Assembly (NCBI GenBank): GCA_963829055.1
Contig: CAWHHI010000016.1
Coordinates: 320,001-384,000, forward strand
DNA: 64,000 nt
Direction of reading: 5' to 3'
Source: an uncultured Gemmatimonadaceae bacterium
GTDB lineage: Bacteria; Gemmatimonadota; Gemmatimonadetes; Gemmatimonadales; Gemmatimonadaceae
Shown here: positions 943 through 64,000 of the stretch, one piece after another
Layout of the letters: every line of letters starts with the position of its first letter
How positions within the stretch are numbered: position 1 is the stretch's first letter
Made by a program: the position numbers and the translations under genes
The notes under the pieces: generated by a model
Database searches by the model: none
Told to the model about the DNA's origin: nothing
The model's input: only the letters and a program-made list of their open reading frames with translations

Positions 943-3343
943 GTGAACGCGCACGCACTCGCGGTACTCGAATTTCAACGCACGCTGGACGTCGTCGCTG
1001 GCCACGCGTCATCGGCGGCGGGTGCGGAGCACGTGCGCGGTTTGCGCCCCGGCGACGACGTCGCGGAGATCGAGCGCGAGCACGCGCGCGTCACGGCGAT
1101 GCGCGCGCTCGTGACCGCCGACGCGCCATGGTCGCCCGAGGCCATTCCCGACATCGCGCGAACCTTGCCGCGGCTCCGCGTCGAGGGAACCGCACTGCCA
1201 GGCCCGGAACTGCTCTCCACGCTCGTGCTGTTGCGCTCATCGCGCCGGACGGCTGAAGCGCTGCGCGATCCACGGCGCCCGACCGTAGCGACCGCCGTAC
1301 TCTCTCCGATCGTCGCAAACCTCGTGTCCGCCAAGGCGGAAGAGGCGGCGTTGGAGCGCGTGCTGGCGGACGACGGCAGCGTGCGCGACGACGCGTCGCC
1401 ACAGCTGCGTCGGCTTCGCCGCGAGCTTCGTGGTGCCGAGGCGGAGCTGATTCGGCTGCTCGAGCGGATCATGTCGCGGCTCGAGTCGCACCAGCAGGTG
1501 CCCGGACATGTCCGTGACCGTGCGGAACGGTCGCTACGTGATTCCTGTGCGTCGGGAAGGACGTGGCGCCGTCGGCGGCATCGTTCACGACACGTCGGGC
1601 TCGGGCGCGACGCTGTTCGTCGAGCCACCCGCAGCCGTGGAGGAAGGGAACCGCATTCGCGAGCTCGAGATCGAGGAGATCCGCGAAGTCGATCGCATCC
1701 TGCTCGAAGCCACCGACCGCATCCGTCCGTTGCACGACGATCTCGTCGCGTCGCTCGAAGCACTCGTTATGCTCGATTCGCTGTACGGACGCGCGCGTTA
1801 TGCGATCGCGTACCAGTGCGCGCACGCCGAGCTGTCGACGCCGAGCGCGGGGTTCGCGATCAAGAATGGTCGGCATCCGTTGCTGCTTGCGCAGGGCATC
1901 GCCGTCGTGCCGTTCGACCTCGAGATGGGGCCCGACGAACGTACGCTGCTGGTCTCCGGCCCGAACACCGGCGGCAAGACGGTGCTGCTCAAATCGCTCG
2001 CGCTCATTTCCGCGCTCGTGCAGTCGGGAATTCCCGCGCCGGTCGCGGCCGGCAGTCGCGTCGCCGTGTTCGACAACGTGTTCGCCGACATCGGAGACGA
2101 GCAGTCCATCGAAGCGAGCCTGTCGACGTTCAGTGCGCACCTCAAGAACCTCGGCGAGATTCTCGTTGCCGCGACGCCGCAGTCGCTCGTGCTCGTCGAC
2201 GAGCTCGGATCCGGCACCGACCCGATCGAAGGCGCCGCGCTCGGCGGGGCGATCCTCGAGGAGCTGACGCGACGCGGGTCCATGACGATCGCGACGACGC
2301 ACCTCGGCGCGCTCAAGGAGCTGGCGACCGAGGTCCCAGGCGTCGTGAACGCGTCGTTGCAGTTCGACGCGGCGGCGCTCGCGCCGACGTACCGGCTCAT
2401 CAAGGGCGTCCCCGGGCGGTCGTACGGCATCAGCATTGCGCGACGCCTGGGACTTCGCGGCGACGTGCTCGATCGCGCGGAGGAGCGGATCCCGCAGAAC
2501 GAGCGTGACGTCAATCGATTGCTCGCGGACCTCGAGGTGCGCGACGCCGACATGGCGAAGCGCGAGCGCAACGTCGCGATCGACGAGGAGAACGTGCAGG
2601 CGCGTGCGCACCGACTCGCGGAGCGCGAACAGCGCATTCGCCAGCGCGAGCGTGAGCTCGAGAAGGAGTCACGCGCCGGTGCTCGCCGCTATCTCCTGGA
2701 CGCACGCAACGAGATCGAGCGCGCGATCCGTGAGTTGCGCGAGGCGGGCGCTGCAGGCCTCGACGAGCAGGCCCGGATGGCGCGTCAGGGTGTGGAGCGA
2801 CTTGCCGCGCAGCACGGAGATGCGCTCGCCGCGATCGACCGGCGCGAACGAGATGCCACCGGCGCGGACGACGACGGCGTCGAGGCCGATGACGGGCTGC
2901 CTAACGAAGGCGACGTCGTCGAGATCACGACGCTCGATGACAGGCTCGGCCGCGTACTCGAGCGGCGCGATGATGACGCGGTCGTGGCCGTCGGCGGCAT
3001 CAAGATGACGCTGCCGTTGACGGCGCTGCGTCGCTCGCGGAAGCAGCAGCCGCGCGAACGCGAGACCGTTCCGCTGTTGGGTGACGTGCCTGACGAGTAC
3101 ATCGCGACCGAGATCGATCTGCGCGGCCAGCGCGTTGGCGACATTGACGATCTGGTCATGCAGGCGGTCGATGCCGCTGTGCGTGCAGACCTCAAGTCGC
3201 TGCGCATCATCCACGGCAAGGGAACCGGTGCGCTGCGAGCACGCGTGACGGAAATGCTGCGGAAGGACACGCGGGTGAAATCGTTCCGTCTCGGCGCGTG
3301 GAACGAAGGCGGCACCGGCGTGACGCTCGCGGAGTTCGCCTGA
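943..3343 (+). CDS. mutS2: Endonuclease MutS2 with C-terminal Smr domain; frameshift near 1500
   Basis: ALAVLEF N-terminus, SGPNTGGKT Walker A, DIGDEQSIEASLSTFSAH, DELGSGTDP, Smr IIHGKGTGALR. Confidence 0.95.
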
Positions 3344-3362
3344 CCGTGCCCAGGTCGTTCGC

Positions 3363-5293
3363 ATGATCCCCGACGAGGACGTCGAGCGCGTTCGCGACAA
3401 CGCCGACATCGTGCAGATCATCGGCGAGCACGTGAGCCTGAAACGTGTGGGCACGGACTGGCGCGGACCGTGCCCGTTCCATCAGGGCACGCATCGCAAC
3501 TTCTCGGTGTCGACGAAGAAGCGCATGTACTATTGCTTCGTCTGCCACGCCGGCGGCGACGTCTTCAACTTTCTGCAGAAGCGACTCGGGATGGACTGGC
3601 CTTCGGCGGTGCGGGCAGTGGCCGACAAGTCCGGCATCGAGATCCGCGAGGTCGAGACTCGTCGCGAAGGCCCCGACCCACGCGAGCCCGTGTGGGAGCT
3701 CAACGCAGCGGCGGCCGAGTATTTCCAGCGCATGCTGTGGGATGAGGACATTGGCCAGCCGGCGCGCGAGTACCTCGCGAAGCGAAACGTGTCGCGTGAG
3801 GCGGGGCAGCGGTTCGGCCTCGGCTTTGCCCCACGCGAGATCGGGTTGCTGCGGAGCTATCTGAATACGCTTGGCTATGACGATGCTCGTCTCCTGAGCG
3901 GCGGCTTGCTCGTGCAGCGAGAGGAGGCCGAGGAGCCACGTCCCCGCTTTCGCGGGCGCCTCATGTTCCCCATCTATGACGCGTCAGGACGACCGTCTGG
4001 ATTCGGCGGGCGCCTCATCGGCCCCGGTGAACCGAAGTATCTGAACTCGTCGGACTCCCCGACGTTCACCAAGGGTCGTTTGCTGTACGGTCTGAACTGG
4101 GCTCGCCATGCGATTCGTCGGGACGAGCGGTTGTTGCTCGTCGAGGGCTACTTCGACGTCGTGCGTCTCGTGCTCGCGGGCATCGAGACCGTCGTCGCAC
4201 CGTTGGGCACCGCGCTCACTGATGAGCAGGCGTCGATGATCGCGCGTCAGACGAAGAACGTGTTTCTGCTCTACGACAGTGATACGGCGGGGCAGAAGGC
4301 CACGTTCCGTGCGGGTGACCTGCTCCTGTCGCAGGGAGTTTCCGTTCGTGTGGTGACCCTGCCCGACGGCGAGGATCCCGACACGTTCGTCGACACGCAT
4401 GGTCCAGCGGCGCTCGAGTCACACATTGAGGCGGCCGTCGATGTCTTCGATCGAAAGGTGCAGATCCTCGAGCGCCAGGGCTGGTTCGCGGATCTGCATC
4501 GGCGACGCCGCGCCATCGACCGTCTGCTGCCGACCATCCGAGTCACTGCCGATCCCGTCACGCGCGACATGTACATCGCTCGTGCGAGTGAGGCGTCCGG
4601 TGTCGATCGCGCGGTGCTCGCGCGAGAAGCCGCCAACGATGGCGGCGCGCGGAATTCGCGACCCCGAACGGCCGCCCCGTCCGCTCCACCGCCTGACGAG
4701 CAGCAGCCAGACCTCCGCATGGGCGACAGGCGTGCCGGCGATCGCCGCGATCCGCCGGTTGCACGACCACCTCGCGTCGGGCCCTCAGTCGAGCGATATC
4801 TGCTCCGTGTGATTCTCGCGCATCCCGCGTATCTCGAGCTGGCGGCTGAAGCGGATGTCGGACCAGCGACAGTTTCCAGGACGCCGCGGTATCGTGAGAT
4901 CTTCGAGACGCTCGCGACGCTCGGCGCGGACGCTCCGCCCGAGCTCGTGATCAAGGAATTGTCGGAGGACGCAGCGGCGGCGTACGACCAGATGCTCGGC
5001 GAGCCGCCCGAGTCCATTGTCAATCTCGAGCAGACGTACCGTGACACGATCGCGACGCGTCCGGACGCGCGAGCTGAAGGACAGGAATGCAGAAATGCAA
5101 CCGACTCATGGCGACCGCGCGCGGCATCGACGAAAAGAATGCGCTGCTCGCCGAGATGACGGCGAACAAGCGACAGGCCGAAGCCCTGCAGGTCGACGAC
5201 GTGATGCACGTTACCAAGCGCGACGCGCGACATGCGACGATCACGCATCAAACGCCGCGTCACCGCGGCGCACACTCCACAGGGAGGGCATGA
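3363..5293 (+). CDS. dnaG: DNA primase; C-terminal frameshift(s)
   Basis: CPFH zinc finger, RFRGRLMFPI, KYLNS, VEGYFDV, YDSDTAGQKA TOPRIM; tail probably continues in ORF 5087..5293. Confidence 0.93.
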
Positions 5294-5998: not shown

Positions 5999-6036
5999 TG
6001 CTTGTTGGGGGTATGGGTCCCCAATAGCTTGACCGG

Positions 6037-7792
6037 GTGACCGCACCCCCCATTCGCCCACGTCTCAAGCCGCGTTGGGTTTTTCCGCCGGAGCCTGATC
6101 CGACCGCTGTCGAGGCGCTCGCCGCGGAGCTGCATCTGCCAACGACTCGTTTGTCGGCTTTTGCTCGTCCGCGGGTACTCGGCGGTCGAGCCGGCGAAGC
6201 ACTTCCTTCGCCCGCGGCTGGAGCGATTGCACTCGCCGCACGGTCTGCCTGACGCGGCCGTTGCCGTCGAGCGACTCGGTCCGCGCCGCGCGTGACGCCG
6301 AAACGGTGCTCATCCACGGCGATTACGACGTCGACGGCATCTGCGCCACGACGCTACTCACGAGGTCGCTGCGCTATTTCGGTGCGCGCCCCGTCCCGTT
6401 CATTCCGCGCCGCCTCGAGGACGGCTACGACCTGAGCGAAGCCGGCGTTCGCGCGGCTCGTGAGGCAGGGGCGAAGCTCGTCGTGACGTGCGATTGCGGC
6501 ACGAGCGCGCTCAAGCCCATCCAGGCGTTGTGTGAGTCGGGCGTCGACGTCATCGTCACCGACCATCACTTGCCGGGCGGTCCGCTGCCCGAGTGTCTCG
6601 CGGTGCTGAACCCGAAACGACACGGGTCGGAGTATCCCGACAAGGATCTCGCCGCGGTGGGCGTCGCGTTCAAGCTCATGCTCGCGCTCGCGGAGAAGCT
6701 CGGCGCGAATGCGAACTTCGTCTACAACATGCTGGACCTGGTCGCGCTCGCGACCATCGCGGACGTCGCGCCGCTTCGCGGTGAGAATCGGATCTTCGCG
6801 AAGTACGGTCTCAAGCTCATGGCGGAGACGCCGCACGTCGGCTTGCGCGCGCTCATGCGCGCGTCAGGCATGGACGGCAAACCGCTCACCGCCGGCCGCG
6901 TCGGCTTCATCCTCGCGCCGCGATCTGAACGCCGCCGGCCGCATCGGTCACGCCATGCAAGGCGTCGAGCTGCTGATGTCGGATTCGGAGCCACAGGCGA
7001 ATCGCATCGCGCGCGAGCTCGAGGAAATGAACAGGAAGCGGCAGGAGATCGATCGCGCCACGCTCGAAGCAGCGCGCCGTCGCGTCGACGCCCTCGATCT
7101 CGACAACACGTTCGGCATCGTGCTGGCGGAACAGGGTTGGCACCCGGGAGTCATCGGCATCGTCGCGTCGCGCATCGTCGAGGAGACCGGGCGGCCGACG
7201 ATCATGATTGCGCTCGACGGCGATCAGGGGAAAGGCTCGGGTCGAGCGCCCTCGCCCTTCGACCTGCACGCGGGTCTCACCGAGTGTCGCGACTTGCTCA
7301 TTCGGTATGGCGGCCACCGCGCGGCGGCCGGCGTGACGATCGAGGCGTCGCGCGTGGACGCATTCGCGGAACGCTTCAACGAGGTTGCTCGCGCGACGCT
7401 GCGTCGTGAAGACCTGCAGCCAGAGCTCAGGATCGACGCCGAGATCTCGATCGATCAGGTGACCGACGACCTCGAGGGAATGCTCCGGCACTTCGAGCCG
7501 TTCGGCGTCGGCAACCCGTCGCCGGTGTTCGTCTCGCGCGGAGCGCGTATCGCCACGCCGCCCCGCGTGGTCGGGCAGCGATGGACTCAAGATCCGTCTC
7601 GCCGGCTCCCCACACGATCGTGACGCGTTAGGCTGGGGCATGGGCGACCTCGCGCCGGAGCTGTCGCCGGGCATGTTGGTCGACCTCGCGTACCGGGTCG
7701 AGCGCGACACGTATCAGGGCGAGAGTCGGTTGCAGCTGCGCATTGCCGACATCCGGATGGCAGGGACGGCTCCGGCGGCGGATAGCCGTTAG
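6037..7792 (+). CDS. recJ: ssDNA exonuclease RecJ; several frameshifts
   Basis: IHGDYDVDG, VTCDCG, TDHH, ATIADVAPLRGENR, LNAAGR, GGHRAAAG, EPFGVGNPSP; ends CGT TAG at 7792. Confidence 0.93.
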
Positions 7793-7794
7793 GC

Positions 7795-8305
7795 ATGCGT
7801 ATCGTGGCGGGGCGGTGGCGCGGCCGGCGCATACGCCCACCCGACGATGACCGCGTCCGTCCGACCGCGGATCGTGTGCGAGAGGCGTGGATGAGCATCG
7901 TCCAGCCCTACCTCGTCGGCGCGCGTGTGCTGGATCTGTTCGCTGGATCGGGCGCGTTAGGCCTGGAAGCGCTGTCTCGCGGGGCGGCGTCCTCCGACTG
8001 CGTGGAGGTCAGCGTTGCCGGCGTGCGCGCGATCAAGGAGAACGCGGAGACGCTTGGTGCAGGGGACGCGTTGAGCGTCCATCGCGCGGATGCCATTCGC
8101 TTCATCGCGAAGCTCGACGCCGGCGCGTTCGACGTCGCGTTCGCCGATCCACCGTACGGCCAGGGACTCGCGACGGCTGTCGCGGAACGCTGGCTTGCCG
8201 TCCCTTTCGCGATCTCGTCTCGGCATCGAGCATAGCTCGAAGGAAAAGCTGCCCGCAGGTGACACGAGGAAGTACGGCACGACGTCGATCACGTTCTATC
8301 GTGCC

Positions 8306-8329
<24 letters not shown>
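7795..8329 (+). CDS. rsmD: 16S rRNA m2G966 methyltransferase; frameshift near 8215
   Basis: MRIVAGRWRGR, RPTADRVREA, LDLFAGSGALGLEALSRGA, DPPY. Confidence 0.92.
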
Positions 8330-9887
<1,558 letters not shown>

Positions 9888-9891
<4 letters not shown>

Positions 9892-10316: not shown

Positions 10317-10777
10317 ATGATTGCTGGCGAGAGCGACGAGCGAGCCCGCGACACACACGTCCGTGTGGCGTTCGACAGGCTGATCCCGAGCGACGTCCGC
10401 GAGATCGAACCGATCGTCGAGCAGGTCACCCGCGAATGCCGCGTGCTCGCGCTGCCAGCGCGCCAGTGCGCGCTGAACGTTCCCGTCGCCCTTACCGAGG
10501 CGCTCAGCAACGCGATCCTGCGGGGCAATCGCGGCGCGCGCGACAAGCAGGTCCGCGTGAGAGCCGTCGTGAGCGACACCGCGCTGGTGCTCGAGGTAGC
10601 CGACGAAGGCACTGGATTCGACCTCGACGCCTGTACCATCGATCCGACGAGCCCGGGCAATCTCGAGCGCGAAGATGGACGCGGGTCTGTTTCTCATGCG
10701 GTCGCTTGATGGATCGCGTCGAGCGCTATGGCGATAACGCCCACAACGTGGTCCGCCTGACTCTGAACCGCTTGTGA
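10317..10777 (+). CDS. Anti-sigma factor / Ser kinase (RsbW-like HATPase); frameshifts near 10690
   Basis: ALTEALSNAILRGN, VADEGTGFD, EDGRG...LMDRVE. Confidence 0.85.
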
Positions 10778-12372
10778 AAGAACTGGGCGCGGTGCTCGCC
10801 TCGTTCAGCGAGGCTACGCAGTGCGGCGCCGTCGTCTGGACGCAGCCGCCCGGCGGAGGCGCGCTCACCGCGGAAGTAGGTTCGCCCATTGGCGATCCTC
10901 CGGCCATCGTCGAGCTCATCCCCGCCGGCGCGGCCGCCGCGGTGGAGGTGCACACGCCGAGCGGCAGCATGCTCGTTCAATCGCTGCCGGGACCGCGCCG
11001 CGCGTGGCTCGCGCTGGGACCGTGCGCGAATCGCGTCGCGCCGTCGCGCGGCTGGCTCAAGTTCCTGCTGCCGGTCGTGACGCACTACCGGCAAGCGTCT
11101 CTCGAAGTCGAGCACGCCGCGAACGAGCTCGCGGAGCGCTACGAGGAGATCAATCTCCTCTACACCACGAGCGAGATTCTCGGTCGAACGGTGTCGTTGG
11201 AAGAAGCCGCGGCGACCATTCTGCACGAGATCTCGGAGACCGTCGGCGCTCGTCGCGCTTCCATTCTCGTGCACGAGGAAGTTGGCGGCACACTGCAGGT
11301 CGTCGCCGCACTCGGCGTCGCGGGCGCGGCCACGCCGGCGATCGACCTGGGCGATGAATGCAGCGTTTCGGCGAATGTCTTTCGCTCGCGGAAATCGATG
11401 ATCGCCGAAGATGGCGAGATGCTGTGCGACCAGGAGCAATCGTACCGGCGCGGTACGATGCTGTCCGTGCCGATCATGTGGACCGGCCCTGACGGAGCGC
11501 GACCGCTGGGCGTCGTGAACCTGTCGGACAGGCGGTCGGGCCAGCCGTTTTCCGCCGGCGATCAGAAGCTGGTGGAAGCCATCGCGACGCAGATCGGCAC
11601 CGCTATTCAGAACGCTCGTCTCGTGAGCGCGTCGCTCAATCAGCAGCGGCTCGTGTACGAGATGAGTCTGGCGCACGACCTCCAGATGAAGCTCCTGCCC
11701 GCAACGTCTGTCGTCGCGCCAGAGGCGGAGGTCGCCGCACGGGTGCTCCCCGCGGAAAGCGTCGGCGGTGACTTCTACCATCTGTTCAGACTCGGTGGTC
11801 GTCGCACCGGCGTCATGATCGGCGACGTGTCGAGCCACGGCTATCGGGCGGCGCTCATCATGGCACTCGCGATGAGCGCGTCCGCGATTCACGCGCAGAC
11901 GACGATCGATGCGGCCGAGACGCTGGCCGCCCTTCTGGCGTCCCTGCGTGACGAGCTGGAGTCGACCGAGATGTTCATCACCGTCTTCTACGGCGTGATC
12001 GACCCGACCGTCGGTGTGCTGCGCTATGCGAACACGGGGCACCCGCACGCGTTCGTGATCACGGCCGATGGAACGGTCTCGCGTCTGCCGGCGCTCGATC
12101 CCCCGTTAGGCATGACGACTGGGCGTCCCGATGGCGCGTCACGACCGTGGCGCCGCGGCTCGGATCTGCTGCTGCTGTTCACCGACGGGGTGAGCGACGC
12201 ACAGAATGACGCCGGCGTGCGCCTCGGCGAGCAGCCGGTGCTCGATATCGTGTTGCAGCATCGGACGGAGCCTACGGCCATGATCCTCGACCGCGTCTTC
12301 GAGGCCCTCAGCGCGCACGTCGGCGAGTCGCCGCGCCCTGACGACCTGGCGCTCGTCATCGTTCGTAACTGA
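10774..12372 (+). CDS. GAF-domain PP2C/SpoIIE phosphatase (RsbU-like)
   Basis: GAF region followed by VGGDFY, IGDVSSHG, FTDGVSDA, DDLALV. Confidence 0.92.
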   Translation: MKELGAVLASFSEATQCGAVVWTQPPGGGALTAEVGSPIGDPPAIVELIPAGAAAAVEVHTPSGSMLVQSLPGPRRAWLALGPCANRVAPSRGWLKFLLPVVTHYRQASLEVEHAANELAERYEEINLLYTTSEILGRTVSLEEAAATILHEISETVGARRASILVHEEVGGTLQVVAALGVAGAATPAIDLGDECSVSANVFRSRKSMIAEDGEMLCDQEQSYRRGTMLSVPIMWTGPDGARPLGVVNLSDRRSGQPFSAGDQKLVEAIATQIGTAIQNARLVSASLNQQRLVYEMSLAHDLQMKLLPATSVVAPEAEVAARVLPAESVGGDFYHLFRLGGRRTGVMIGDVSSHGYRAALIMALAMSASAIHAQTTIDAAETLAALLASLRDELESTEMFITVFYGVIDPTVGVLRYANTGHPHAFVITADGTVSRLPALDPPLGMTTGRPDGASRPWRRGSDLLLLFTDGVSDAQNDAGVRLGEQPVLDIVLQHRTEPTAMILDRVFEALSAHVGESPRPDDLALVIVRN

Positions 12373-15003: not shown

Positions 15004-15882
15004 ATGACGACCACACTCGCCCCGCTCGTCGAAACGCTGGCCGTCGGCCGGCTTCGCATTCACACGATTCAGGCGGGCGGGCAGAAGCTCGACGGCGGAG
15101 CAATGTTCGGGGTCGTGCCGAAGCCGCTCTGGGAACGGCGCATTGCGCCGGACGAGCGCAATCGCATCCAGCTCGGCATGCGCTGCGTGTTGATCGAGCA
15201 CGAATCGACGTTGGTCCTCGTCGATACGGGCGCCGGGAACAAGGAGACATCGAAGTTCCACGACATCTACGGCCTCGAGAACGCCGGCGCGAACGGACGG
15301 ACGCTGCTCGAGGACGGGCTGTCGCAGATCGGCGTTAGGCCGGAGGACATCGGGATCGTGATCGACACGCACCTCCATTTCGATCACGCCGGCGGCAACA
15401 CGTACGTCGAAGAGGGCGGGGAGCCGCGGCTGTCATTTCCGAACGCCCGCTACATCGTGCAGCGTGGCGAGTGGGTGTACGCCACGCACCCGAACGAGCG
15501 AACGGCCGGGAGCTACTTCGCCCACAACTACGCGCCGGTCGTCGCCGCCGACCGTTTCGATTTCGTGGACGGCGAGCGGGAGATCGTGCACGGGGTCCGA
15601 GTCGTTCCTACGCCCGGTCATACGCCGTTTCACCAGTCGGTCCTGATCGAGTCCGACGGCGAGACGGCGTTCTACGCGGCGGACCTGGTGCCGACGGCGT
15701 CGCATTTGCCGCTGCCGTGGATCATGGGGTACGACGTCGAACCCCTGGTGACACTGGAGACCAAGCGGGCGATGCTCGGCCACGCGGCCCGGGACGGCTG
15801 GCTGGTGATCTTCGAACACGACGCGAAGGTGGGATCCGGCCGTTTGCGGGTTGACGGCAAGGGCTTCGCCTTGGAGTCTTGA
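15004..15882 (+). CDS. Metallo-beta-lactamase-fold hydrolase (YtnP-like)
   Basis: LDGGAMFGVVPKPLW, THLHFDHAGG, TPGHT, WIMGYD. Confidence 0.9.
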   Translation: MTTTLAPLVETLAVGRLRIHTIQAGGQKLDGGAMFGVVPKPLWERRIAPDERNRIQLGMRCVLIEHESTLVLVDTGAGNKETSKFHDIYGLENAGANGRTLLEDGLSQIGVRPEDIGIVIDTHLHFDHAGGNTYVEEGGEPRLSFPNARYIVQRGEWVYATHPNERTAGSYFAHNYAPVVAADRFDFVDGEREIVHGVRVVPTPGHTPFHQSVLIESDGETAFYAADLVPTASHLPLPWIMGYDVEPLVTLETKRAMLGHAARDGWLVIFEHDAKVGSGRLRVDGKGFALES

Positions 15883-16153: not shown

Positions 16154-16216
16154 GGCCGTCACCTCGCTGAACTCGCGTTAGGCACACGGCCGCCATTCCT
16201 CTCGAGGAGCACGGTT

Positions 16217-17479: not shown

Positions 17480-18502
17480 GTGACCATCCAGGATTATCTC
17501 GACGAAGCCCAGGCGCTCGAGCGCGAGCTCGACGAGCGCTTGCAACAGATCGAGCCCGCGACGCGCATCGATGTCGTGAAGGGCCAGTTGCGTGATTGGC
17601 GCGCACGTCTCGATCAGCTGCAGAAGTCCATCACGACGGTCCCGCCTGACGCGCGGCGCGACGCCGGCATCGCGCTGAATCGCGTTCGCAGCGGCTTCGA
17701 AGATGCGATGGCGCAACGCGAGGCTGCCGCGACCGGCTCTGGAGCGCAGGCCGCGGCCGATCTCACCATGCCCGCGCGCGAGCGTTGGCGCGGCGGCAGA
17801 CACCCCGTCACGCTCGTCATTCGCGAGATCCGCGAGATCTTCCGCGAGCTCGGCTTCACGGTCGCGTTAGGCCCCGAGGCCGAGACCGAGTGGTACAACT
17901 TCGGCGCGCTGAACTTCCCGCCGGACCACCCGGCCATGGATGCGCACGACACGTTGTACCTCGGACCCGGATCGCTGCTGCGGACGCACACATCGCCCGT
18001 GCAGGTGCGCACGATGCAGCGCTGGGCGCCGCCCATTCGCATCCTCGCCCCCGGCAACGTCTATCGCCGCGACTTCTTCGACCCGTCGCACGCTCCGATG
18101 TTCTCGCAGATCGAGGGGCTGTCCGTCGACGAGGGCGTGAGCTTCGTCGATCTCAAGGCGACGCTCACGAACTTCGCGCGACGCTTCTTCGGTACCGCGC
18201 GCACGCGCTTCCGTCCGAGCTACTTCCCGTTCACGGAGCCGTCGGCCGAGATGGACGCGCAGTGCGGCGTGTGTGGTGGCTCGGGATGCCCGACGTGCAA
18301 GGGCACCGGGTGGATCGAGATCCTCGGCAGCGGCATGGTGCATCCGGCTGTGCTCGAGTCGGCGGGCATCGACAGCGAGCGCTACACCGGCTGGGCGTTC
18401 GGCATGGGTCCTGGCCGCATCGCGATGTCGCGTTACGGCATTCCCGACATTCGTCTCCTTTACGATTCCGACGTGCGTTTCCTGGAGCAGCTCGCGCGAT
18501 GA
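17480..18502 (+). CDS. pheS: Phenylalanyl-tRNA synthetase alpha subunit
   Basis: LLRTHTSPVQ, FRPSYFPFTEPS, WIEILGSGMVHP, GWAFGMG. Confidence 0.97.
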   Translation: MTIQDYLDEAQALERELDERLQQIEPATRIDVVKGQLRDWRARLDQLQKSITTVPPDARRDAGIALNRVRSGFEDAMAQREAAATGSGAQAAADLTMPARERWRGGRHPVTLVIREIREIFRELGFTVALGPEAETEWYNFGALNFPPDHPAMDAHDTLYLGPGSLLRTHTSPVQVRTMQRWAPPIRILAPGNVYRRDFFDPSHAPMFSQIEGLSVDEGVSFVDLKATLTNFARRFFGTARTRFRPSYFPFTEPSAEMDAQCGVCGGSGCPTCKGTGWIEILGSGMVHPAVLESAGIDSERYTGWAFGMGPGRIAMSRYGIPDIRLLYDSDVRFLEQLAR

Positions 18503-20982
18503 ACGTTTCGTACAACTGGCTGAAAGATTTCGTCGATATCGACCTGAGCCCGGTCGCGCTCGGTGACCTGATCACGTCGCGAGCCGCTACCGTCGACGCC
18601 GTGGAGTCGCTGCGCGACGATCTCCGGCAGTTCGTCGTCGCGCGTGTCGTCGAGTGTGCACGCCATCCCGACAGCGATCACCTCTCGGTGACGAAGGTGG
18701 ACGCCGGCACTGGCGAGCTGCTCGACGTCGTGTGCGGCGCGCCTAACGTTCAGGCCGGCAAGCTCTACCCGTTCGCGAAGACGGGAACGAAGATGCCCGC
18801 AGGCTTCACGATCGAGCGTCGGAAGATCCGCGGCGCGGTCTCGAACGGGATGCTGTGCTCGGCGCGCGAGATCGGCTTGGGCGAGGAGCAGGACGGCATC
18901 CTCGAGCTCAACGTCGACGTTCCACCCGGGACGCCGCTGCTCGACGCGATTCCGTCGGTCTCCGACGCGCGCCTCGTCGTCGACGTGGGCGCCAACCGAC
19001 CCGATCTACTCTCGCACCTGGGCGTTGCACGCGAGGTCGCCGCGGCCCTCGGCAAACCACTCGAGATGCAGCGCGCCGCGGCCCAGATCGCGAATGCCTC
19101 CCGTCCGCCGGTTCCCATCGGGTCGACCACGCGCACGGGCGTCACGGGCGGCGTCAGCGTCACCATCGAAGACGTGGACGGCTGCCCACGCTATCTCGGA
19201 GCGGTTGTCCGCGGCGTCCGCGTCGGACCAAGCCCGGATTGGCTGGTGCAGCGGCTTGATGGTGCGGGCGTTCGCTCTATCAACAACGTCGTAGACATCA
19301 CGAACTTCATGCTGCTCGGCTTCGGCCAGCCGATGCACGCGTTCGACGCGAAGCGTCTTGCGGGCCCCGCGATCATCGTGCGCCGTGCAAAGGCTGGCGA
19401 GAAGCTCGTAACGCTCGACGGAATCGAACGCTCGCTGACGGAGGACATGTGCGTCATCGCTGACGGCGAGCGCGCACAGGCACTGGCGGGGGTGATGGGC
19501 GGCCGCGACTCCGAAGTCTCGTCCGAGACGACCGACATCTTTCTCGAGGTCGCGTCGTTCAACCCGCGGCGCGTGCGACAGATGCGCCGCGCACTCTCAC
19601 TTTCTACTGAAGCCAGCTATCGCTTCGAGCGTGGTACCGATGCCGCGTCAGCGCCTGAGCGCTTGCAGCAGGCCGTCGCGCTTATCATCGCGCTCGCGGG
19701 AGGGACGGCGGAGCCCGCGGTTGACGTCTATCCGGTGCCGCGCGTCGCAGGGCCGCTCGTTGTCCGCGTCGCACGGGTCAAGCAGGTGCTCGGCGAACCG
19801 ATTCCTGCCGCTCGCATCGTGCAGTTGCTGCGCTCGATCGGATTCGCTGGCGAGGTTCGCCCCGGGACCGAGATGCTCACTGGCAACGAAGAGATTGTCG
19901 TGAGCGCGCCAACGTGGCGGCAGGATATCGTGGCCGAAATCGACGTGATCGAGGAGGTCGCTCGGCTGCACGGCTACGACTCCCTCTCTGATCAGCTGCG
20001 TCCGTTTCGCGTCGGCAATGTTCCCGACGCGCCGAACTTCGATCTGGACTCCCACATCCAGGATATGCTCGCAGGTGAGGGACTGTTCGAGGTCCGTCCC
20101 CTGCCGTTCGTGGCTGGCGACGACGCCACTCACGTCCGCGTCGCGAATCCGCTCGCTGAGAACGAGGGGCACCTCCGCACGTCCATCCTCGAGACGCTCA
20201 CGAGCCGCGCGGAGTTCAATCTGTCGCACATGGAAGGGAACGTGCGCCTGTTCGAAGTGGGTGCCGTGTTCGCGCCTCGGGCAGGATCCGCACTCCCGCT
20301 CGAGCGCAGGAGCGTGGGCGTAATTGTCATGGGCGATCGGCGCCCGCCGCATTTCACCGATCCGAAGCCACCGCGCTACGACCAGTGGGATGCCAAGGCC
20401 CTGGCCGAGAGGCTGGTCGAGGTGGCGGTGCCCGATGCGCGCGCGGTCTTCGTTCCGGCGGACGCTGCGTCGCAGGCGGACGGAGCGCTCTGGACAATCG
20501 AGCTCAATGGCACTGCGCGAGGGACGGTCCGAACGGTGCCGCTCGATGCACCTGTGTGGGCCTCAACAGCCTACGGCATCGAGCTGGACCTGGGTGTCGT
20601 CGAATCGGCGGACGTCGCGGCTCCGGGCAAGTCGATTCATGGACAGACTGCGACATCCCCGCCGCTGAAGCACGCGCAGTTCAAGCCGTTGCCGTCGACG
20701 CCGGCGGCTCAGATCGATCTCGCGCTGCTCGTGCCGGAATCGCTGCAGGCCGCGGAGGTCGAGCGGGTGATCCGGAACAACGGAGGCGACCTGCTGGAGC
20801 GATTGTCGTTGTTCGACGAGTTCCGTGGCCAGGGTCTGCCGGCGGGGACGCGAAGCCTCGCGTGGCGATTGACGTTCCGCGACGCAACGCGCACTCTACG
20901 CGACAAGGAGATCGAAGGCCGCACCAACAAAATCCTACGTGCCCTGGAAGGAGAGCTCGGTGTCCGACAGCGCAGCGCCTGA
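18499..20982 (+). CDS. pheT: Phenylalanyl-tRNA synthetase beta subunit
   Basis: MNVSYNWL, VCGAPNV, SINNVVDITN, ASYRFERG, IEEVARLHGY. Confidence 0.97.
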   Translation: MNVSYNWLKDFVDIDLSPVALGDLITSRAATVDAVESLRDDLRQFVVARVVECARHPDSDHLSVTKVDAGTGELLDVVCGAPNVQAGKLYPFAKTGTKMPAGFTIERRKIRGAVSNGMLCSAREIGLGEEQDGILELNVDVPPGTPLLDAIPSVSDARLVVDVGANRPDLLSHLGVAREVAAALGKPLEMQRAAAQIANASRPPVPIGSTTRTGVTGGVSVTIEDVDGCPRYLGAVVRGVRVGPSPDWLVQRLDGAGVRSINNVVDITNFMLLGFGQPMHAFDAKRLAGPAIIVRRAKAGEKLVTLDGIERSLTEDMCVIADGERAQALAGVMGGRDSEVSSETTDIFLEVASFNPRRVRQMRRALSLSTEASYRFERGTDAASAPERLQQAVALIIALAGGTAEPAVDVYPVPRVAGPLVVRVARVKQVLGEPIPAARIVQLLRSIGFAGEVRPGTEMLTGNEEIVVSAPTWRQDIVAEIDVIEEVARLHGYDSLSDQLRPFRVGNVPDAPNFDLDSHIQDMLAGEGLFEVRPLPFVAGDDATHVRVANPLAENEGHLRTSILETLTSRAEFNLSHMEGNVRLFEVGAVFAPRAGSALPLERRSVGVIVMGDRRPPHFTDPKPPRYDQWDAKALAERLVEVAVPDARAVFVPADAASQADGALWTIELNGTARGTVRTVPLDAPVWASTAYGIELDLGVVESADVAAPGKSIHGQTATSPPLKHAQFKPLPSTPAAQIDLALLVPESLQAAEVERVIRNNGGDLLERLSLFDEFRGQGLPAGTRSLAWRLTFRDATRTLRDKEIEGRTNKILRALEGELGVRQRSA

Positions 20983-31348: not shown

Positions 31349-31352
31349 GCGA

Positions 31353-35326: not shown

Positions 35327-35340
35327 TCACTCGACATTCG

Positions 35341-39235: not shown

Positions 39236-39353
39236 TCCGCAGCCGAGCCGGCTGTGACGCTGACGAGCTGAGCCTAACGCGGCATTCTGGTCTTTGGTAC
39301 GCGGCTGGCGCGCGTCGTGCACTTCGGGCGCGCCCCAGACAAAGAGGCGACCA

Positions 39354-45904: not shown

Positions 45905-47179
45905 CCTCCCATCCGGCCTCACTCGCGATCCGTGTACCGGGCGACAAGTCGATCTCGCACCGCGCCCTCATCTGTGCCGCGCTCGCGAGCGGCCGGTCGC
46001 GCATTCGCAACATACTGCCATCGGCCGACGTGCATTCGACGGCAGGAGTTCTGCGCGCGTTAGGCGTGACGATCCCGCCACTCGGGCACGACGTTCGTGT
46101 CGACGGGCGTGGTCTCGGTGCTCTCGAAGCCGCGAGCGAGCCGCTCGACTGCGGAAACAGCGGCACGACGGCGCGCCTCATGACCGGCGTGCTGAGCGGA
46201 CACCAGTTCGCGAGCCGCCTCATCGGCGATGCGAGTCTCAGCCGACGTCCGATGGCGCGTGTTGCTCGCCCGCTCGAGGCCATGGGCGCGCGCTTCACGT
46301 TCGAGGACGGGGATCATCTGCCGATGGTCGTGACTGGCGGACAATTGCGTTCGATCGACTGGCCGAGCCCGACGGCGAGCGCGCAGGTCAAGAGCGCGAT
46401 TCTCTTCGCGGGGCTCGTGGCGCGGCGTTCCTGTGTCCGTCACGGAGCCCATCCGCTCCCGCGACCATACCGAGCGCATGCTGGCGTCTCTTGGCGTCGA
46501 GATCCGTTCGTGTGGCGGTGAAGCGTCGCTCACGCCGGCGTCCGAGCTGCCTTCATTCCAGATCGACGTTCCGGCGGATCCATCGTCGGCGGCGTTCCTC
46601 GCCGCGCTCGCCGCGGCGGGAGGGGTAGGGAGCGGCACGCCCGTCGCGCTGACAGATGTCGCGTTGAATCCGACGAGGCTCGGGTTCTTTCGCACGCTGC
46701 GCGACATGGGCGCCGACGTGGAGTGGGAAGTAGAGCGCGAGGAGTGCGGCGAGCCGGTCGGCACCATCACGGTCACCGCGCGTGGGTTGCGCGCGGTGCG
46801 CGTGGCCGGCCAGGACGTTCCGGCGATGATCGATGAGCTGCCGCTTCTCGCGTGTCTGGCGACGCGCGCCGATGGCGAAACGGAGATCCGTGGCGCGAGC
46901 GAGCTCCGGGTCAAGGAAAGCGATCGGATTGCGGCGGTCGTCGCCAACCTTCGCGCCGTCGGCGCGGATGCGGACGAGCTTCCCGACGGGCTGCGCGTGC
47001 GCGGGCCGACGTTGTCGTTAGGCGGTCAGGTGCGGGCGCACGGGGATCACCGGCTGGCGATGGCGTTCGGTGTGCTTGGCGCGCTGTCTGGCGACGCGAT
47101 CGTTGTGGACGATCCCGACTGTGTCTCGGTCTCGTATCCGGGATTCTGGTCGGATCTGGCGCGACTGACGGATGAGTAA
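45901..47179 (+). CDS. aroA: EPSP synthase; frameshift near 46425
   Basis: PGDKSISHR, DCGNSGT, SAQVKSA, RDHTERML, ELRVKESDRI, DHR. Confidence 0.95.
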
Positions 47180-53063: not shown

Positions 53064-53067
<4 letters not shown>

Positions 53068-55411: not shown

Positions 55412-55806
55412 TGGCTGACAGTTCGACGACGCACGCCGTTGGCCGCCGCAAGGAAGCGGTGTGTCGCGTGTACATTCGCCCCGGCTCCGGCAAGTGGGAT
55501 GTCAACGGTCGCACGTTAGGCGACTACTTCCCGCGGGCCGCGCTCGTGTCGGCCATTCAGCAGCCGTTCACCGCGACTGACACGCTCGGGCGCTTCGACG
55601 TCAAAGCGAACGTCGTCGGTGGCGGACAGACGGGTCAGGCCGGCGCGCTGCGTCTGGCCGTCGCCCGTGCCCTCGTCGTGCTCGATGAGGCGCACCGCCG
55701 CAAGCTTCGTGACCTCGGTCTCCTGACGCGCGACGCGCGTGCGGTCGAGCGCAAGAAGCCGGGACGTCCGAAGGCCCGCAAGCGGTTCCAGTTCTCGAAG
55801 CGCTAA
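55411..55806 (+). CDS. rpsI: 30S ribosomal protein S9
   Basis: GRRKEAV, GGGQTGQA, KARKRFQFSKR. Confidence 0.97.
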   Translation: MADSSTTHAVGRRKEAVCRVYIRPGSGKWDVNGRTLGDYFPRAALVSAIQQPFTATDTLGRFDVKANVVGGGQTGQAGALRLAVARALVVLDEAHRRKLRDLGLLTRDARAVERKKPGRPKARKRFQFSKR

Positions 55807-55818
55807 CGCGTTTCGAGT

Positions 55819-55880: not shown

Positions 55881-55888
55881 GTTCGACC

Positions 55889-55985: not shown

Positions 55986-55990
55986 AGCAA

Positions 55991-56920: not shown

Positions 56921-56961
56921 ACGCTCCCACTGCCACAGGCCTCGAAGACCGTCTACAATCC

Positions 56962-56992
56962 AAACGCCGCCGGCGCCGTGCCGGCGGCGTTT
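56962..56992. terminator. Hairpin between rpsB and tsf (possible attenuator)
   Basis: aaacgccgccggc-gccgt-gccggcggcgttt. Confidence 0.55.
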
Positions 56993-57015
56993 CCACGAAA
57001 ACGAAGGAAAGACAC

Positions 57016-57915: not shown

Positions 57916-57921
57916 GCGACG

Positions 57922-58641: not shown

Positions 58642-59192
58642 CAACAATTCCGCAGATCGTGAAAGACTGTCGCGCGCACATGGACAAGGCGATCGAGAGC
58701 TCGAAGCGGGAATTTTCTTCGATCCGCTCCGGCAAGGCGTCGCCCTCCATGCTCGATACGGTGCGTGTGGACATGTACGGCACGCAGATGACGCTGAACC
58801 AGGTGGCGAGCGTATCGGCGCCCGAGCCGCGCATCATCCTCGTGACGCCGTTCGACAAGGGCCAGCTCAAGGCGGTCGAGAAGGCGATTCGTGAGTCCGA
58901 CCTCGGGCTCGACCCGGCGGTGCAGGGCGGCGTGATCCGCGTTCCGCTGCCGATGATGAACGAGCAGCGCCGCAAGGAGCTGGCGAAGGTCGTTCACAAG
59001 CTCGCTGAAGAAGGACGGATCGCCGTTAGGCACGCGCGCACGACCGCGCGCGATCAGCTGAAGAAGCTGAACGGCGTGAGCGAGGACGACGTGAAGCACG
59101 CCGAGAAGGATCTCCAGAAGATCCACGACGACTACATGCACAAGATCGACGAGCTCCTGAAGCACAAGGAAGCCGAGATCATGGAAGTCTGA
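58638..59192 (+). CDS. frr: Ribosome recycling factor
   Basis: [23 protein letters not shown]. Confidence 0.96.
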
Positions 59193-59205
59193 CCGGACCC
59201 GCACC

Positions 59206-59958
59206 GTGCACTCCAGGAACGCCGCCGAGCTGCTCGCGCAGATCCGCGTTCACGGCGCGGTGCCGCGACACGTGGCCATCATCATGGACGGAAACGGCCG
59301 GTGGGCGCGCGAACGGCGCATGCCCCGGCCGTTTGGGCATCGGTCCGGCATGAAGTCGGTGCGGGAGGTCGTGGAAGGCGGGGTCGAGGTGGGGCTCGAG
59401 GTACTGTCGCTGTTCGCGTTCTCGCAGGAGAACTGGCACCGTCCGCCGACCGAGATCACGGCACTCATGTCGCTGCTCGAGGAGTACATCGCGCGCGAGG
59501 CCGACGAGCTGCACCAGCGAGGCGTTCGGGTCCGTGCGTTAGGCGCGCTGGAGCGACTCACGGCGGACGCCTCCGCTGCCGTGGAGCGCGTGGTCGCGCA
59601 AACGGCGGGCAACGACCGGATGATTTTGAACTTGTTCATTTCTTACGGCGCACGCGCCGAGCTCGCCCGCGCCGCGAGGCTGCTGGCGCAGGACGCGGCG
59701 GCCGGGCGGATCGACGCGACGTCGATCGACGAGACGGCCTTCGCGAGTCGGCTCTATACGGCTGAGTGTCCCGACCCGGACCTGCTGATTCGCACGTCCG
59801 GGGAACAGCGCCTCTCGAACTTCCTCCTCTGGCAGCTCGCCTACTCGGAGCTGTACATGAGTCCCGTACTCTGGCCGGACTTCACGCGGGGCGATCTGTA
59901 CGAGGCGATTCGCGATTTTCAGCTGCGCGAGCGTCGGTTCGGCCGAGTACCGGCCTAA
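59206..59958 (+). CDS. uppS: Undecaprenyl diphosphate synthase
   Basis: PRHVAIIMDGNGRWA, FSQENW, IRTSGEQRLSNFLLWQ. Confidence 0.96.
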   Translation: MHSRNAAELLAQIRVHGAVPRHVAIIMDGNGRWARERRMPRPFGHRSGMKSVREVVEGGVEVGLEVLSLFAFSQENWHRPPTEITALMSLLEEYIAREADELHQRGVRVRALGALERLTADASAAVERVVAQTAGNDRMILNLFISYGARAELARAARLLAQDAAAGRIDATSIDETAFASRLYTAECPDPDLLIRTSGEQRLSNFLLWQLAYSELYMSPVLWPDFTRGDLYEAIRDFQLRERRFGRVPA

Positions 59959-59961
59959 CGC

Positions 59962-60819
59962 GTGAGCGAGCTCGCCAAGCGCATCCTCACCGCACTGGTG
60001 GCGGCGCCGCTGGCGCTCGTCATGATCTACCTGGGTGGCCTTCCGTTGGCGGCGTTCCTCGCGCTCGTGTCCGCCGGCTGCGCCTGGGAGTTCTATCGCA
60101 TCGCGACGGCGGGCGGACTCGAGCCACTCGACCCGATTGGGATTCCACTCGCCGGCGCTATCCCACTCGTCACGTATGCCGCTGCCGTCGGCGTCTATCG
60201 ACCGACGCTCGCGGTTCCCGCGGTCGCGTTGCTCGTGATCCTCGCCGCGGTCATCTGGGCGCGAGGTACCGGGCGCCGCCCGCTTGGCGCGGCGTCGGCG
60301 ACGGTCATGGGCGTGCTGTACACAGGAGGCTCGCTCAGCTTCGGCTACGCGCTGCGTGAGTACCCGTACGCGGTCGGCGATCGAGCGGGGACGGCGCTCG
60401 TCGCCTTGCCACTGATCCTGACCTGGGCATCCGACATCGGGGCGTACTTCGTGGGGCGCGCTGTTGGCGGGCCGAAGCTGCTGCCGTCGGTGAGCCCGGG
60501 GAAGACGCGCTCCGGCGCGTTAGGCGGATTGCTCGCGACGATCATCGTCGCGTGGCTCTACGTACGCTTCGCGTTAGCGCCGGTGGCCTCGCTCACGATG
60601 ACGCTGCCGGCGACGATCGTATTCGGGCTCGTCATCAGCGTCGCGGCACAGGTGGGCGATCTCACCGAGTCGCTGCTCAAGCGCGAGGCGAACGTGAAGG
60701 ACAGCTCACGCCTGCTTCCCGGCCACGGCGGACTGCTCGACCGACTCGATAGCCTGCTGTTCGTCCTGCCGGTCGCGTACCTCCTGTTCGGTTGGCTCCT
60801 CATCCCGGCGGTTCCGTGA
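59962..60819 (+). CDS. cdsA: Phosphatidate cytidylyltransferase
   Basis: SDIGAYFVG, SPGKT, GDLTESLLKR..KDS..LPGHGGLLDRLD. Confidence 0.95.
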   Translation: MSELAKRILTALVAAPLALVMIYLGGLPLAAFLALVSAGCAWEFYRIATAGGLEPLDPIGIPLAGAIPLVTYAAAVGVYRPTLAVPAVALLVILAAVIWARGTGRRPLGAASATVMGVLYTGGSLSFGYALREYPYAVGDRAGTALVALPLILTWASDIGAYFVGRAVGGPKLLPSVSPGKTRSGALGGLLATIIVAWLYVRFALAPVASLTMTLPATIVFGLVISVAAQVGDLTESLLKREANVKDSSRLLPGHGGLLDRLDSLLFVLPVAYLLFGWLLIPAVP

Positions 60820-63140: not shown

Positions 63141-63532
63141 TGCGGCTCATCCTCGCCTGTTTCGGCGGCCTTCTGTTCCTCGTGCCGCTGTCACGGGCTC
63201 ACGCCCAGGACCGCGACGTTAGGTTCGCCATCACGACGGTGGGAGACACGACGATCACGTTTCACGCGGGGAAGATGACGTGGGTGGTGCGCACGAAGGG
63301 TGCGATCGTGGTCGACCCGCGGCGTCGTGACGCACTCGTTGCGCGGCTCAGGGTGGTCTCGGTCGGCGCCAACGGCGAAGCGACCGCGGTCGTGACCGCA
63401 CAGTCAGGGCGCGTAACAACTGACCACATTGTGATCGGTACCGAGCCGCCCGTCCGCTGGTACAAGAACACGCTGATGTGGATGGGCGCCGCATTCGGAC
63501 TCGTCGCGGGCTTCGGGCTAGGGAAGCTCTAG
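63137..63532 (+). CDS. Hypothetical exported protein with C-terminal TM helix
   Basis: Signal peptide ending AHA-Q; C-terminal WYK..WMGAAFGLVAGFG. Confidence 0.65.
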   Translation: MMRLILACFGGLLFLVPLSRAHAQDRDVRFAITTVGDTTITFHAGKMTWVVRTKGAIVVDPRRRDALVARLRVVSVGANGEATAVVTAQSGRVTTDHIVIGTEPPVRWYKNTLMWMGAAFGLVAGFGLGKL

Positions 63533-64000
63533 CGCTCGCAGATCGGGCTGCGACGAGGCAGCGTCTTGTTCTGAGCCTCGACGGTGACGGTGTCCGCGTA
63601 GGGCGCGCACCGTGAGTGCATGATGATGCGCTCGTAATCGCCGATCGGCAGGACGATGTTCTTCACCGGCACGACGCCCTCGCGATGTACGCTGTCGCCA
63701 GGGGTGAGCGACTTGAGCGTCCACCGCGCGCCGGCCGGATTCGCATCGAACGAGAGCGCTCCACAGGCACGGGGGCGCAGGGTGACACTCTTCGTGCGAC
63801 CCGCCACGACACGAGTGTCGATCGTTTCGGTCGCGTTAGGACAATCGACTGGGGATGACACGCTCGCCGTCACCTTGTACATGCCAGGCTTCAACGTGTC
63901 CGACCGCCACCCGTTGCCTTTCGCGACTTCCTTACCCTGCAACAAAATGATCGCGTCCCCCGGCGCGGTCACCGTGATTCGTCCTGTCGTCGGGGGCGGC
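63529..64000 (-). CDS. 3' end of a gene truncated by the window edge; PEGA-like beta-sandwich repeats
   Basis: APGDAII.LQG...LKPGMYKV, GALSFDANPAGA...LPIGDY. Confidence 0.55.
   Translation of the reverse strand, partial: PPPTTGRITVTAPGDAIILLQGKEVAKGNGWRSDTLKPGMYKVTASVSSPVDCPNATETIDTRVVAGRTKSVTLRPRACGALSFDANPAGARWTLKSLTPGDSVHREGVVPVKNIVLPIGDYERIIMHSRCAPYADTVTVEAQNKTLPRRSPICER

Follow-up and report, generated by a model that had tools for sequence, protein, structure and literature searches.

A hyper-abundant DNA octamer in a Gemmatimonadaceae genome, a possible uptake-sequence-like tag

Why does a single non-palindromic octamer recur 33 times in 64 kb of a bacterial genome? The question is raised by a window, by which we mean the whole 64-kb stretch at positions 320001-384000 of contig C16 of a Gemmatimonadaceae genome (here G000), in which a first reading of the letters had noticed the 8-bp word CGTTAGGC and proposed it as a genome-wide DNA signal. 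Each of the 33 exact copies named in this original prediction is present at its position, 24 on the plus and 9 on the minus strand. Among 100 dinucleotide-preserving shuffles of the window the word occurred 0.91 times on average (standard deviation 0.90, maximum 3) and none reached 33, so that the two to three copies first estimated to be expected were too generous a figure; the G+C content, given there as 68%, is measured at about 66% (0.635-0.680 per 4 kb). The core GTTAGG is found 45 times, against 5.25 expected. As detailed below, the word is a signal at the DNA level, present throughout the genome irrespective of reading frame and not accounted for by coding, and by analogy with known systems the best single model for it, to which we give a probability of about 0.38, would be an uptake-sequence-like tag.

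The excess is not limited to the window. The assembly of G000 comprises 7,784,024 bases in 20 contigs with 66-67% G+C and is rated 86% complete and 4% contaminated, which is why genes missing from it are reported here as not found. Its 7.78 Mb contain the word 5004 times (2547 forward, 2457 reverse), against Markov expectations of 131 (order 1), 102 (order 2) and 257 (order 3). This corresponds to an excess of 19- to 49-fold and upholds the enrichment genome-wide. Under lower-order Markov models the word is by a wide margin the most over-represented 8-mer of the genome, and unrelated 8-mers with at least 300 copies reach at most 8.2 times their order-1 expectation. We used these models in place of a maximal-order ranking, which misses the word, as its sub-words stem mostly from the copies of the word themselves. 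All 20 contigs carry it, at 0.48-0.80 copies per kb, and its recurrence beyond this assembly, in six more of the genus and in numerous further genera, refutes an assembly artefact. Among the matches listed in a full-text literature search for the octamer, all of them primers or unrelated contexts, none describes it, in keeping with the initial statement that none was known for this lineage.

Genes were predicted with our own open reading frame (ORF) and hexamer caller, which yielded 7867 genes covering 78% of the genome, with approximate starts and correspondingly rough intergenic figures. They contain 3397 copies, 1822 in sense and 1575 in antisense orientation. When synonymous codons were shuffled within genes (10 shuffles), 43-65 sense and 102-131 antisense copies were obtained, about 167 in total; an excess of about 20-fold thus survives, and the earlier claim that protein coding alone does not explain the word is borne out. 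It had also been claimed that the word is read in every frame, which is true of the open frames, all four of which are used (xCG-TTA-GGC 1349, xxC-GTT-AGG-C 473, xGC-CTA-ACG 620 and xxG-CCT-AAC-G 955 copies), while the CGT-TAG and GCC-TAA frames occur solely as genes' own stop codons. Altogether 46% of all TTA codons in G000 fall in the word. At peptide-compatible sites, the word is chosen in 1349 of 6091 cases for x-L-G (22%), 473 of 4373 for x-V-R-x (11%), 620 of 3148 for x-L-T (20%) and 936 of 1639 for x-P-N-x (57%), and the last figure suggests that protein sequences, too, are shaped by the word. As many as 470 of 7848 genes stop within a copy, 211 through the TAG of the word and 259 through the TAA of its complement, which supplies 26% of all TAA stops, and in the first 100 nt downstream of stops the word is enriched two- to threefold.

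The word shows no strand polarity. Where a G+C skew is detectable over 100 kb, the G-rich strand has 1246 copies (51.5%) and its complement 1173, and the intergenic copies divide into 330 and 328. The uneven 24:9 split in the window results from one-sided gene orientation together with a mild sense preference, and strong one-strand runs that seemed to occur in another genus (g51) were a listing artefact, the DNA showing 18 plus and 10 minus copies in one case and 21 plus and 18 minus in the other. Of the two outcomes foreseen for polarity, the word behaves like the unpolarized class of the DNA uptake sequence (DUS), the uptake signal sequence (USS) and HIP1; the branch of Chi and the FtsK-orienting polar sequences (KOPS) does not agree with 51.5% on the G-rich strand. 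A polar signal of the latter type, read by a travelling RecBCD/AddAB or FtsK machine, would fit a word of eight letters, a length near that of Chi and KOPS, as well as a weak local excess on the G-rich strand in the first 550 kb of contig C16 (158 versus 111) and an AddAB-like gene pair of short open frames in G000. Besides the lack of polarity, the distribution of these machines argues against it: RecC was found in none of 31 genomes compared (an E. coli control was detected), and AddAB-like PDDEXK_1 pairs were found in 12 of the 31, including the word-poor G008, G009, G011, G016 and others, and not found in the word-rich G001, G002, G005 and G014. The co-occurrence with AddAB that had been suggested is thus not seen, RecBCD/AddAB was rejected as the reader, and we regard a Chi/KOPS-type signal as close to refuted. 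As a separate observation, the two PDDEXK_1 frames of G000 (C15:10173-17510, loci L134 and L135) measure 258 and 339 amino acids, compared with more than 1000 in relatives, and are broken or frameshifted in this assembly.

Copies are spaced more evenly than chance. The mean gap between neighbors is 1530 bp; an exponential distribution predicts 610 gaps below 200 bp where 213 are seen, and gaps of 400-1600 bp are over-represented. The word is also sharply bounded. TTAG occurs 8933 times in G000, 7103 times within GTTAGG, and of the latter 6391 read CGTTAGG and 5630 GTTAGGC. The logo ends at 8 bp, its outer positions being C in 90% (5') and 79% (3') of copies. One position beyond, weak preferences are visible, against C at the 5' end and for G or A at the 3' end, and farther out codon periodicity only. 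With information of about zero past the octamer and a single weak position at either end, the conserved surroundings of a repetitive extragenic palindrome (REP) or a miniature inverted-repeat transposable element (MITE) are absent. Among the 24 one-letter variants, more than twofold expectation is reached by TGTTAGGC (10-fold), CGTTAGGT (13-fold), CGTTAGGG (5-fold), CGTTATGC (4.4-fold) and CGTCAGGC (2.4-fold), and the remaining ones, including the other variants within the core, stay at or below 2.0-fold.

The two top variants are the products of C-to-T changes at the two outer Cs, indicating that ordinary decay shapes the neighborhood of the word. They would also suit a bias of mutation or repair, or a by-product of methylation, similar to HIP1 or to very-short-patch repair, in which near-cognates are converted into the word; such a bias would act likewise on phage DNA that replicates in these hosts. 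This explanation is very improbable in our judgement. Patch repair corrects one position, but all six core positions are strict; changing CTC or CTG into TTA takes two or three substitutions; and a deficit of close pairs is not expected of a local mutational process. The methyltransferases do not match either: families PF02384, PF01555 and PF00145 gave no match in G000 (86% complete), whose sole D12-class methylase gene (C8:133917-137147, locus L304) has a DPPY motif and is split over two reading frames. D12-class genes occur in 13 of the 31 genomes, among them the word-poor G007, G009, G013, G015, G017 and G018, which represent six genera, and none was found in the word-rich G014. The D12 methylase was thus dismissed as the reader, not being co-distributed with the word, and methylation, one of the functions initially envisaged, has lost weight.

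How the word is distributed among relatives was surveyed in 201 genomes from 68 genera of the family, a genome being called enriched if the word is at least three times as frequent as its reversed control. All six other genomes of the genus of G000 carry 2501-5112 copies, and a second genus (g9, genome G014) reaches 6360 copies in 5.1 Mb; in most other genera of the 31-genome comparison the word is rarer than the control. At least 18 of the 68 genera are enriched (g1, g9, g22, g26, g29, g32, g40, g43, g44, g51, g52, g58, g64, g65, g69, g70, g73 and g76), six more lie at two to three times the control, and the rest at or below it. The trait even differs within genera: in g52, G115 has 66 copies versus 3244-4141 in four congeners, and in g22, G032 has 173 versus 858-1991 in the others. 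These tallies include three genomes flagged as unpublished (G013, G048 and G094), all of them word-poor, and no conclusion rests on them.

Individual sites have a history. When the window was aligned to the congeners G001, G002, G004 and G005 (78-79% DNA identity), the word was retained at 12 of 20 sites in G005, 13 of 19 in G001, 21 of 29 in G002 and 11 of 24 in G004, that is at 46-72%, compared with 17.6-18.8% for all other 8-mers, and the flanks of conserved copies are variable. The word-rich G014 carries 27 copies over the corresponding 20 kb and has only one of eight alignable sites in common with G000. In word-poor relatives none of the alignable sites holds the word (0 of 10 in G010, 0 of 8 in G018 and 0 of 5 in G007); in line with a synonymous gain of the motif, they show ordinary synonymous codons there, with CTC or CTG where G000 has TTA and CGG or CGC where it has AGG. 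These alignments indicate that the word was acquired independently in different genera, largely by silent or conservative changes, and then kept. The description as lineage-specific is correct in that the word is restricted to some lineages, but it hides a patchy occurrence over at least 18 of 68 genera and largely different site sets in two word-rich genera.

The uptake-sequence-like tag that we favor as the explanation would work as follows. A DNA-level tag with the strict core GTTAGG and a preferred C on each side would be recognized as duplex DNA, in either orientation, by a sequence-specific reader, and fragments bearing it would preferentially enter other cells of the lineage, by uptake or transfer, and then recombine there. 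We propose that by this preference word-creating mutations would spread and existing copies be kept. Copies would accumulate where proteins tolerate them, namely at synonymous positions at the cost of rare codons (TTA, AGG, CTA, CCT), in Pro-Asn dipeptides, at the stop codon plus last residue of genes and in their 3' flanks. Another copy a few hundred bases or less away would add nothing, which could account for the rarity of close pairs. Biased DNA uptake, competence of the cells and the identity of the receptor are parts of this model that we infer.

Machinery for DNA uptake is encoded in G000, comprising ComEC, a ComEA-like HHH_3 ORF, PilMNO and seven prepilin-type ORFs. A number of observations nevertheless weigh against an uptake tag. 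PilM is present in 193 of the 201 family genomes, and being near-universal the pilus machinery cannot account for a patchy trait. Of the proposed companions ComP and ComEA, the latter has its counterpart in the HHH_3 ORF, but the ComP_DUS family (PF16732) has no match in G000, at 86% completeness. The pilin cluster upstream of pilM consists of identical gene families in word-less and word-rich congeners (G115 compared with G062, G152, G183 and G209, and G032 with G095). No alternative word was found in word-poor relatives, sampled over 140 kb (G007) and 220 kb (G018): the top 8-mers there are codon- or REP-related and lie 4- to 7-fold above expectation, apart from one 15-copy word of G018 at 11-fold. 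Terminator-type inverted pairs do not occur in G000, which has only 38 pairs within 60 bp. Among the literature matches listed, none concerned competence or uptake sequences in Gemmatimonads. Finally, the word is dense in phage contigs, as described below, which an uptake bias does not predict.

Some candidates fell away in this part of the analysis. The minor-pilin cluster was discarded as the source of a reader, as both kinds of genome carry the same families; G007 is without the minor-pilin trio at its pilM cluster, and the F1 gene of G032 is short in the gene calls. One of the stand-alone pilin genes looks frameshifted. A seeming "dialect" word in L014 turned out to be a tandem 7-mer repeat, and candidates of this kind in L002 and L021 were at ordinary codon-driven levels when compared with G000.

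A scan of IMG/VR for two copies 450-480 bp apart yielded at least 119 stretches, and the DNA of 80 was examined. Most stretches hold just the two matched copies, or one-strand runs resembling cassette arrays. Three contigs with phage hallmark genes, however, carry the word densely in both orientations, at 0.8-2 copies per kb: L219 (24 copies in 12.2 kb; large and small terminase), L189 (12 in 7.8 kb; virion proteins and endolysin) and L184 (13 in 16.7 kb; terminase and ParB-like genes). These densities are biased upward because the search required two copies. In the same scan, the word runs along one strand in L174 (16 of 18 copies), where no phage families matched, and in L178 (10 of 10); each may be a cassette array of an integron or host DNA that was classed as viral.

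The phage contigs draw attention to a reader inside the cell. Here a cytoplasmic system, be it a nuclease, a recombination or repair machine or a chromosome organizer, would read the duplex word in either orientation and treat DNA with a copy every 1-2 kb or so as its own; selection, not a bias of transfer, would keep the copies, and resident phages would copy the mark. Such a system, which is the main rival of the uptake tag and which we consider possible but doubtful, fits phage contigs as dense as hosts or denser, strong conservation of individual sites and a regular spacing with a shadow of about 200-400 bp. It also fits a trait that is present or absent with no replacement word, as for an accessory system gained and lost, and the nearly disjoint site sets of two word-rich genera (1 of 8 in common). 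On the other hand, no candidate system emerged from the families tested, the known word-reading nucleases are excluded, RecC not being found in the 31 genomes and AddAB-like pairs not tracking the word, and the phage contigs were selected for density and may be long-resident prophages.

A second link beyond the uptake tag, one that the original prediction had missed, leads to integrons. GTTRRRY, which we take to be the consensus of the integron R' core with GTTAGGC as its archetype, makes the word equal to a C followed by the R' core of the local attC sites. In the word-poor G021, 24 kb of contig C95 contain the word 27 times, with 26 copies sharing a strand and intervals of about 500-650 bp between them. 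Each of the 14 copies that were folded ends, at the 3' side, a stretch starting near GCCTAAC, and most fold as an attC-like hairpin of about 95 nt, those at 2147, 4086 and 6917 being without a clean form. G000 itself encodes an integron integrase at C20:208008-208943 on the minus strand (TIGR02249, 265.7 bits, just above the cut-off), and the octamer forms the end of two or three attC-like sites nearby (around 205101 and 207188). In C20:197000-209000, this intI is followed downstream by small genes of the same strand, and the integrase is oriented as the cassettes are.

Under an integron-linked role, the genomic copies of the word could be integrase-binding or cassette-docking sites (attG- or attI-like), or word-rich genomes could be those in which gene ends gain cassette boundaries. 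A random 8-mer holds GTTRRRY with a probability of about 1/256, so that the coincidence is unlikely to be due to chance; the one-strand array of G021, the attC-like sites beside the integrase of G000 and the 470 genes that end exactly in the word agree with the idea. Passages of a preprint describe insertion of cassettes by integrases at double-stranded genome sites with the consensus 5'-GWT-3' (bioRxiv 10.1101/2022.09.11.507474), and genome insertion sites of integrases are also mentioned in a passage of PMC12614218. The integrase does not track the trait: TIGR02249 is above the cut-off in 18 of the 31 genomes, many of them word-poor, unrelated to word density, and not above it in the word-rich G002, G004, G006 and G014. 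Genomic copies lack the paired R''/L''/L'/R' hairpin, stem complementarity being present in just 6 of 329 candidate pairs at 4 loci; cassettes landing in housekeeping genes would do harm; and the word-poor G021 has the word in its attC sites and not in its genes. We therefore judge either form of this link decidedly unlikely as the origin of the genomic copies, and the integron integrase was set aside as the reader. Two near-perfect palindromes of 52-55 bp stand apart from this, one at C18:97493 with inverted-word flanks (GCCTAACG...CGTTAGGC) and a similar isolated one at C20:163142 (ACCTAACG...CGTTAGGC, the left flank being a one-letter variant); they could be solitary attC-like hairpins or terminators.

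The phage and integron observations can be joined in one bolder proposal, unlikely as a whole. The word would then be the mark of a horizontally mobile intracellular system and not an uptake signal, an orientation-independent token of "self" for a nuclease or recombination machine, and thus an analogue of Chi unrelated to RecBCD/AddAB. Phages would copy the mark, and the R'-core specificity would make cassettes count as self and provide thousands of integrase-compatible sites. The uptake-sequence-like tag is still the best single model. The original prediction of a frame-independent, genome-wide DNA signal stands, its Chi/KOPS branch is close to refuted, its methylation branch is weakened, and its lineage specificity is half right.

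The window itself is a housekeeping stretch with mutS2, dnaG, recJ, infC, rplT, pheST, folD, xseA, dxs, recN and asd, followed in our list by dapABD, aroA, rpsA, rplM, rpsI, rpsB, tsf, pyrH, frr, uppS, cdsA and dxr. Its exact copies start with one lying antisense within mutS2 (2899-2906, minus strand); the next, on the plus strand, is found 3 nt past the end of a recJ-like ORF (7626-7633). The word supplies the stop codon of four window genes, beginning with a 50-amino-acid ORF, itself uncertain, that closes with the TAG of the copy at 7787-7794 (plus; retained in G002 and G004). Plus-strand copies follow within the ORFs 7876-8235 (7955-7962) and 10774-12372 (12104-12111) and within a lactonase-like gene (15333-15340). 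The plus-strand copy at 16176-16183 had been thought intergenic; it lies upstream of the start of IF-3 homology (residue 54 of the gene call), in the leader or an uncertain N-terminus of infC. A sense copy in pheS (17865-17872, plus) is retained in all four congeners and an antisense copy in pheT (18741-18748, minus) in three of four. The gene xseA has two internal plus-strand copies, at 24360-24367 (retained in three of four congeners) and 24753-24760 (GTT-AGG frame, with GTT-CGG in word-poor relatives), and takes the TAA of its stop codon from the minus-strand copy at 25643-25650, again retained in three of four. Of the two plus-strand copies within dxs, at 27643-27650 and 28364-28371, the second is kept in four of four congeners. 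In recN, the plus-strand copy at 29763-29770 is private to G000, the other genomes reading CGCTCGG, the antisense copy at 30570-30577 (minus) is retained in all four congeners, and the plus-strand copy at 31343-31350 provides the TAG stop and is retained in three.

Farther along, the copies at 35339-35346 (plus) and 35705-35712 (minus) are intergenic according to the gene calls, and that at 38048-38055 (plus), antisense within the minus-strand ORF 37185-38117, is retained in four of four congeners. The intergenic position claimed for the copy at 39272-39279 (minus) is correct. An ArgE/DapE-family gene has an antisense copy at 40921-40928 (minus), and asd two plus-strand copies, one private to G000 (41520-41527) and one (41990-41997) that is the single alignable site of eight in common with the word-rich genus of G014. 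On the plus strand, 42685-42692 lies within ORF 42078-43463, which the gene caller missed; dapD carries an antisense copy at 45103-45110 (minus); 46058-46065 (plus) falls within ORF 45855-46628, upstream of the called part of aroA, and 47016-47023 (plus) within aroA. The plus-strand copies inside rpsI (55514-55521) and frr (59024-59031), like that in pheS, had been named in the original prediction and are confirmed by the gene calls. Further plus-strand copies lie within uppS (59537-59544), whose stop codon is the TAA of the minus-strand copy at 59953-59960, and within cdsA (60518-60525). Twelve near copies keeping GTTAGG, at 12518, 17404, 21621, 21706, 30676, 43750, 50387, 51797, 52183, 62267, 63218 and 63835, are likewise all real. 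At 42078-44142 (aspartokinase/dapB) and 45855-47179 (aroA) the pieces of the genes lie in different ORFs, which may be frameshifts of a long-read assembly.

Elsewhere in G000, three contig-end blocks of 31-50 kb (C6:5440-55037, C11:1-46789 and C6:591808-623330) are free of the word at 66-73% G+C. Housekeeping genes (trp and aro genes, ftsK, a second folD, G6PD) are present in them, several in fragments. The blocks resemble either low-coverage stretches or DNA that was joined on from a different organism lacking the word. The genome also has a second dispersed repeat with about 719 copies, none in the window, which has a conserved end (..CGCTCGGAATGACA) and a partly complementary upstream arm (..ATTCCTCGAC..) and is REP- or MITE-like; its GGAATGACA is also the top k-mer in the word-poor G007.

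To our knowledge, genome-wide words of "self" are established for few bacterial groups, all host-associated or aquatic. The carrier here is the soil family Gemmatimonadaceae, abundant and little studied, in which at least 18 of the 68 genera sampled, and about a third of the relatives of G000, are rich in the word. The force behind it has taken 46% of TTA codons, over half of the Pro-Asn sites where the word would fit, and the stops of 6% of genes. An uptake tag, if that is what it is, would imply sequence-selective gene exchange among soil bacteria and offer a genetic handle on uncultured lineages; if not, the word would mark an unknown DNA-reading system. Its identity with the attC core ties it to the question of how cassettes and hosts interact. 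Since single genera (g52 and g22) have members with the trait and members lacking it, the gene of the reader should be findable by comparative genomics. As a practical matter, word density flags foreign or mis-binned DNA in these assemblies.

Among the known systems, Chi and KOPS share with the word that they are over-represented octamers, read in their case by DNA-tracking machines; they differ in being strand-polar and tied to RecBCD/AddAB or FtsK, whereas the word is unpolarized and RecC was not found in the 31 genomes. The cyanobacterial HIP1 (GCGATCGC) is a palindrome tied to a cognate methyltransferase, and its function is debated. Like the word it is a hyper-abundant octamer within genes and conserved at orthologous sites; unlike it, the word is asymmetric, three of four methyltransferase families searched had no match in G000, and the D12 gene of the fourth is not co-distributed. 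With the integron core site the word shares its positions 2-8, which form the R' box, and local attC sites hold the full octamer including the 5' C; in contrast, the thousands of genomic copies are single boxes in genes without an attC hairpin, and the integrase is not co-distributed. The USS of Pasteurellaceae and the DUS of Neisseriaceae are uptake signal sequences (papers on them include PMC3458573, PMC3630211, PMC3868556 and PMC2817400). From these the word differs by the missing ComP-type receptor (no ComP_DUS match in G000) and terminator inverted pairs, by its density in some phage contigs, by its equality with the integron attC core, and by relatives that have the same word or none, unlike the dialects of Neisseriaceae DUS (judged from the two genomes sampled). 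For USS, too, no receptor is known, and USS and DUS occur at roughly one copy per 1-2 kb. Statistically, the anatomy of the word agrees with theirs in almost all points. In common with USS and DUS, the word is hyper-abundant past composition and coding, in a genome that encodes uptake machinery, which is family-wide and thus non-discriminating. The likeness extends to a short non-palindromic word of similar density on either strand and in any open frame, without strand polarity, that accepts disfavored codons and shapes dipeptide usage, is spaced more evenly than chance, holds stable orthologous positions and is confined to some lineages.

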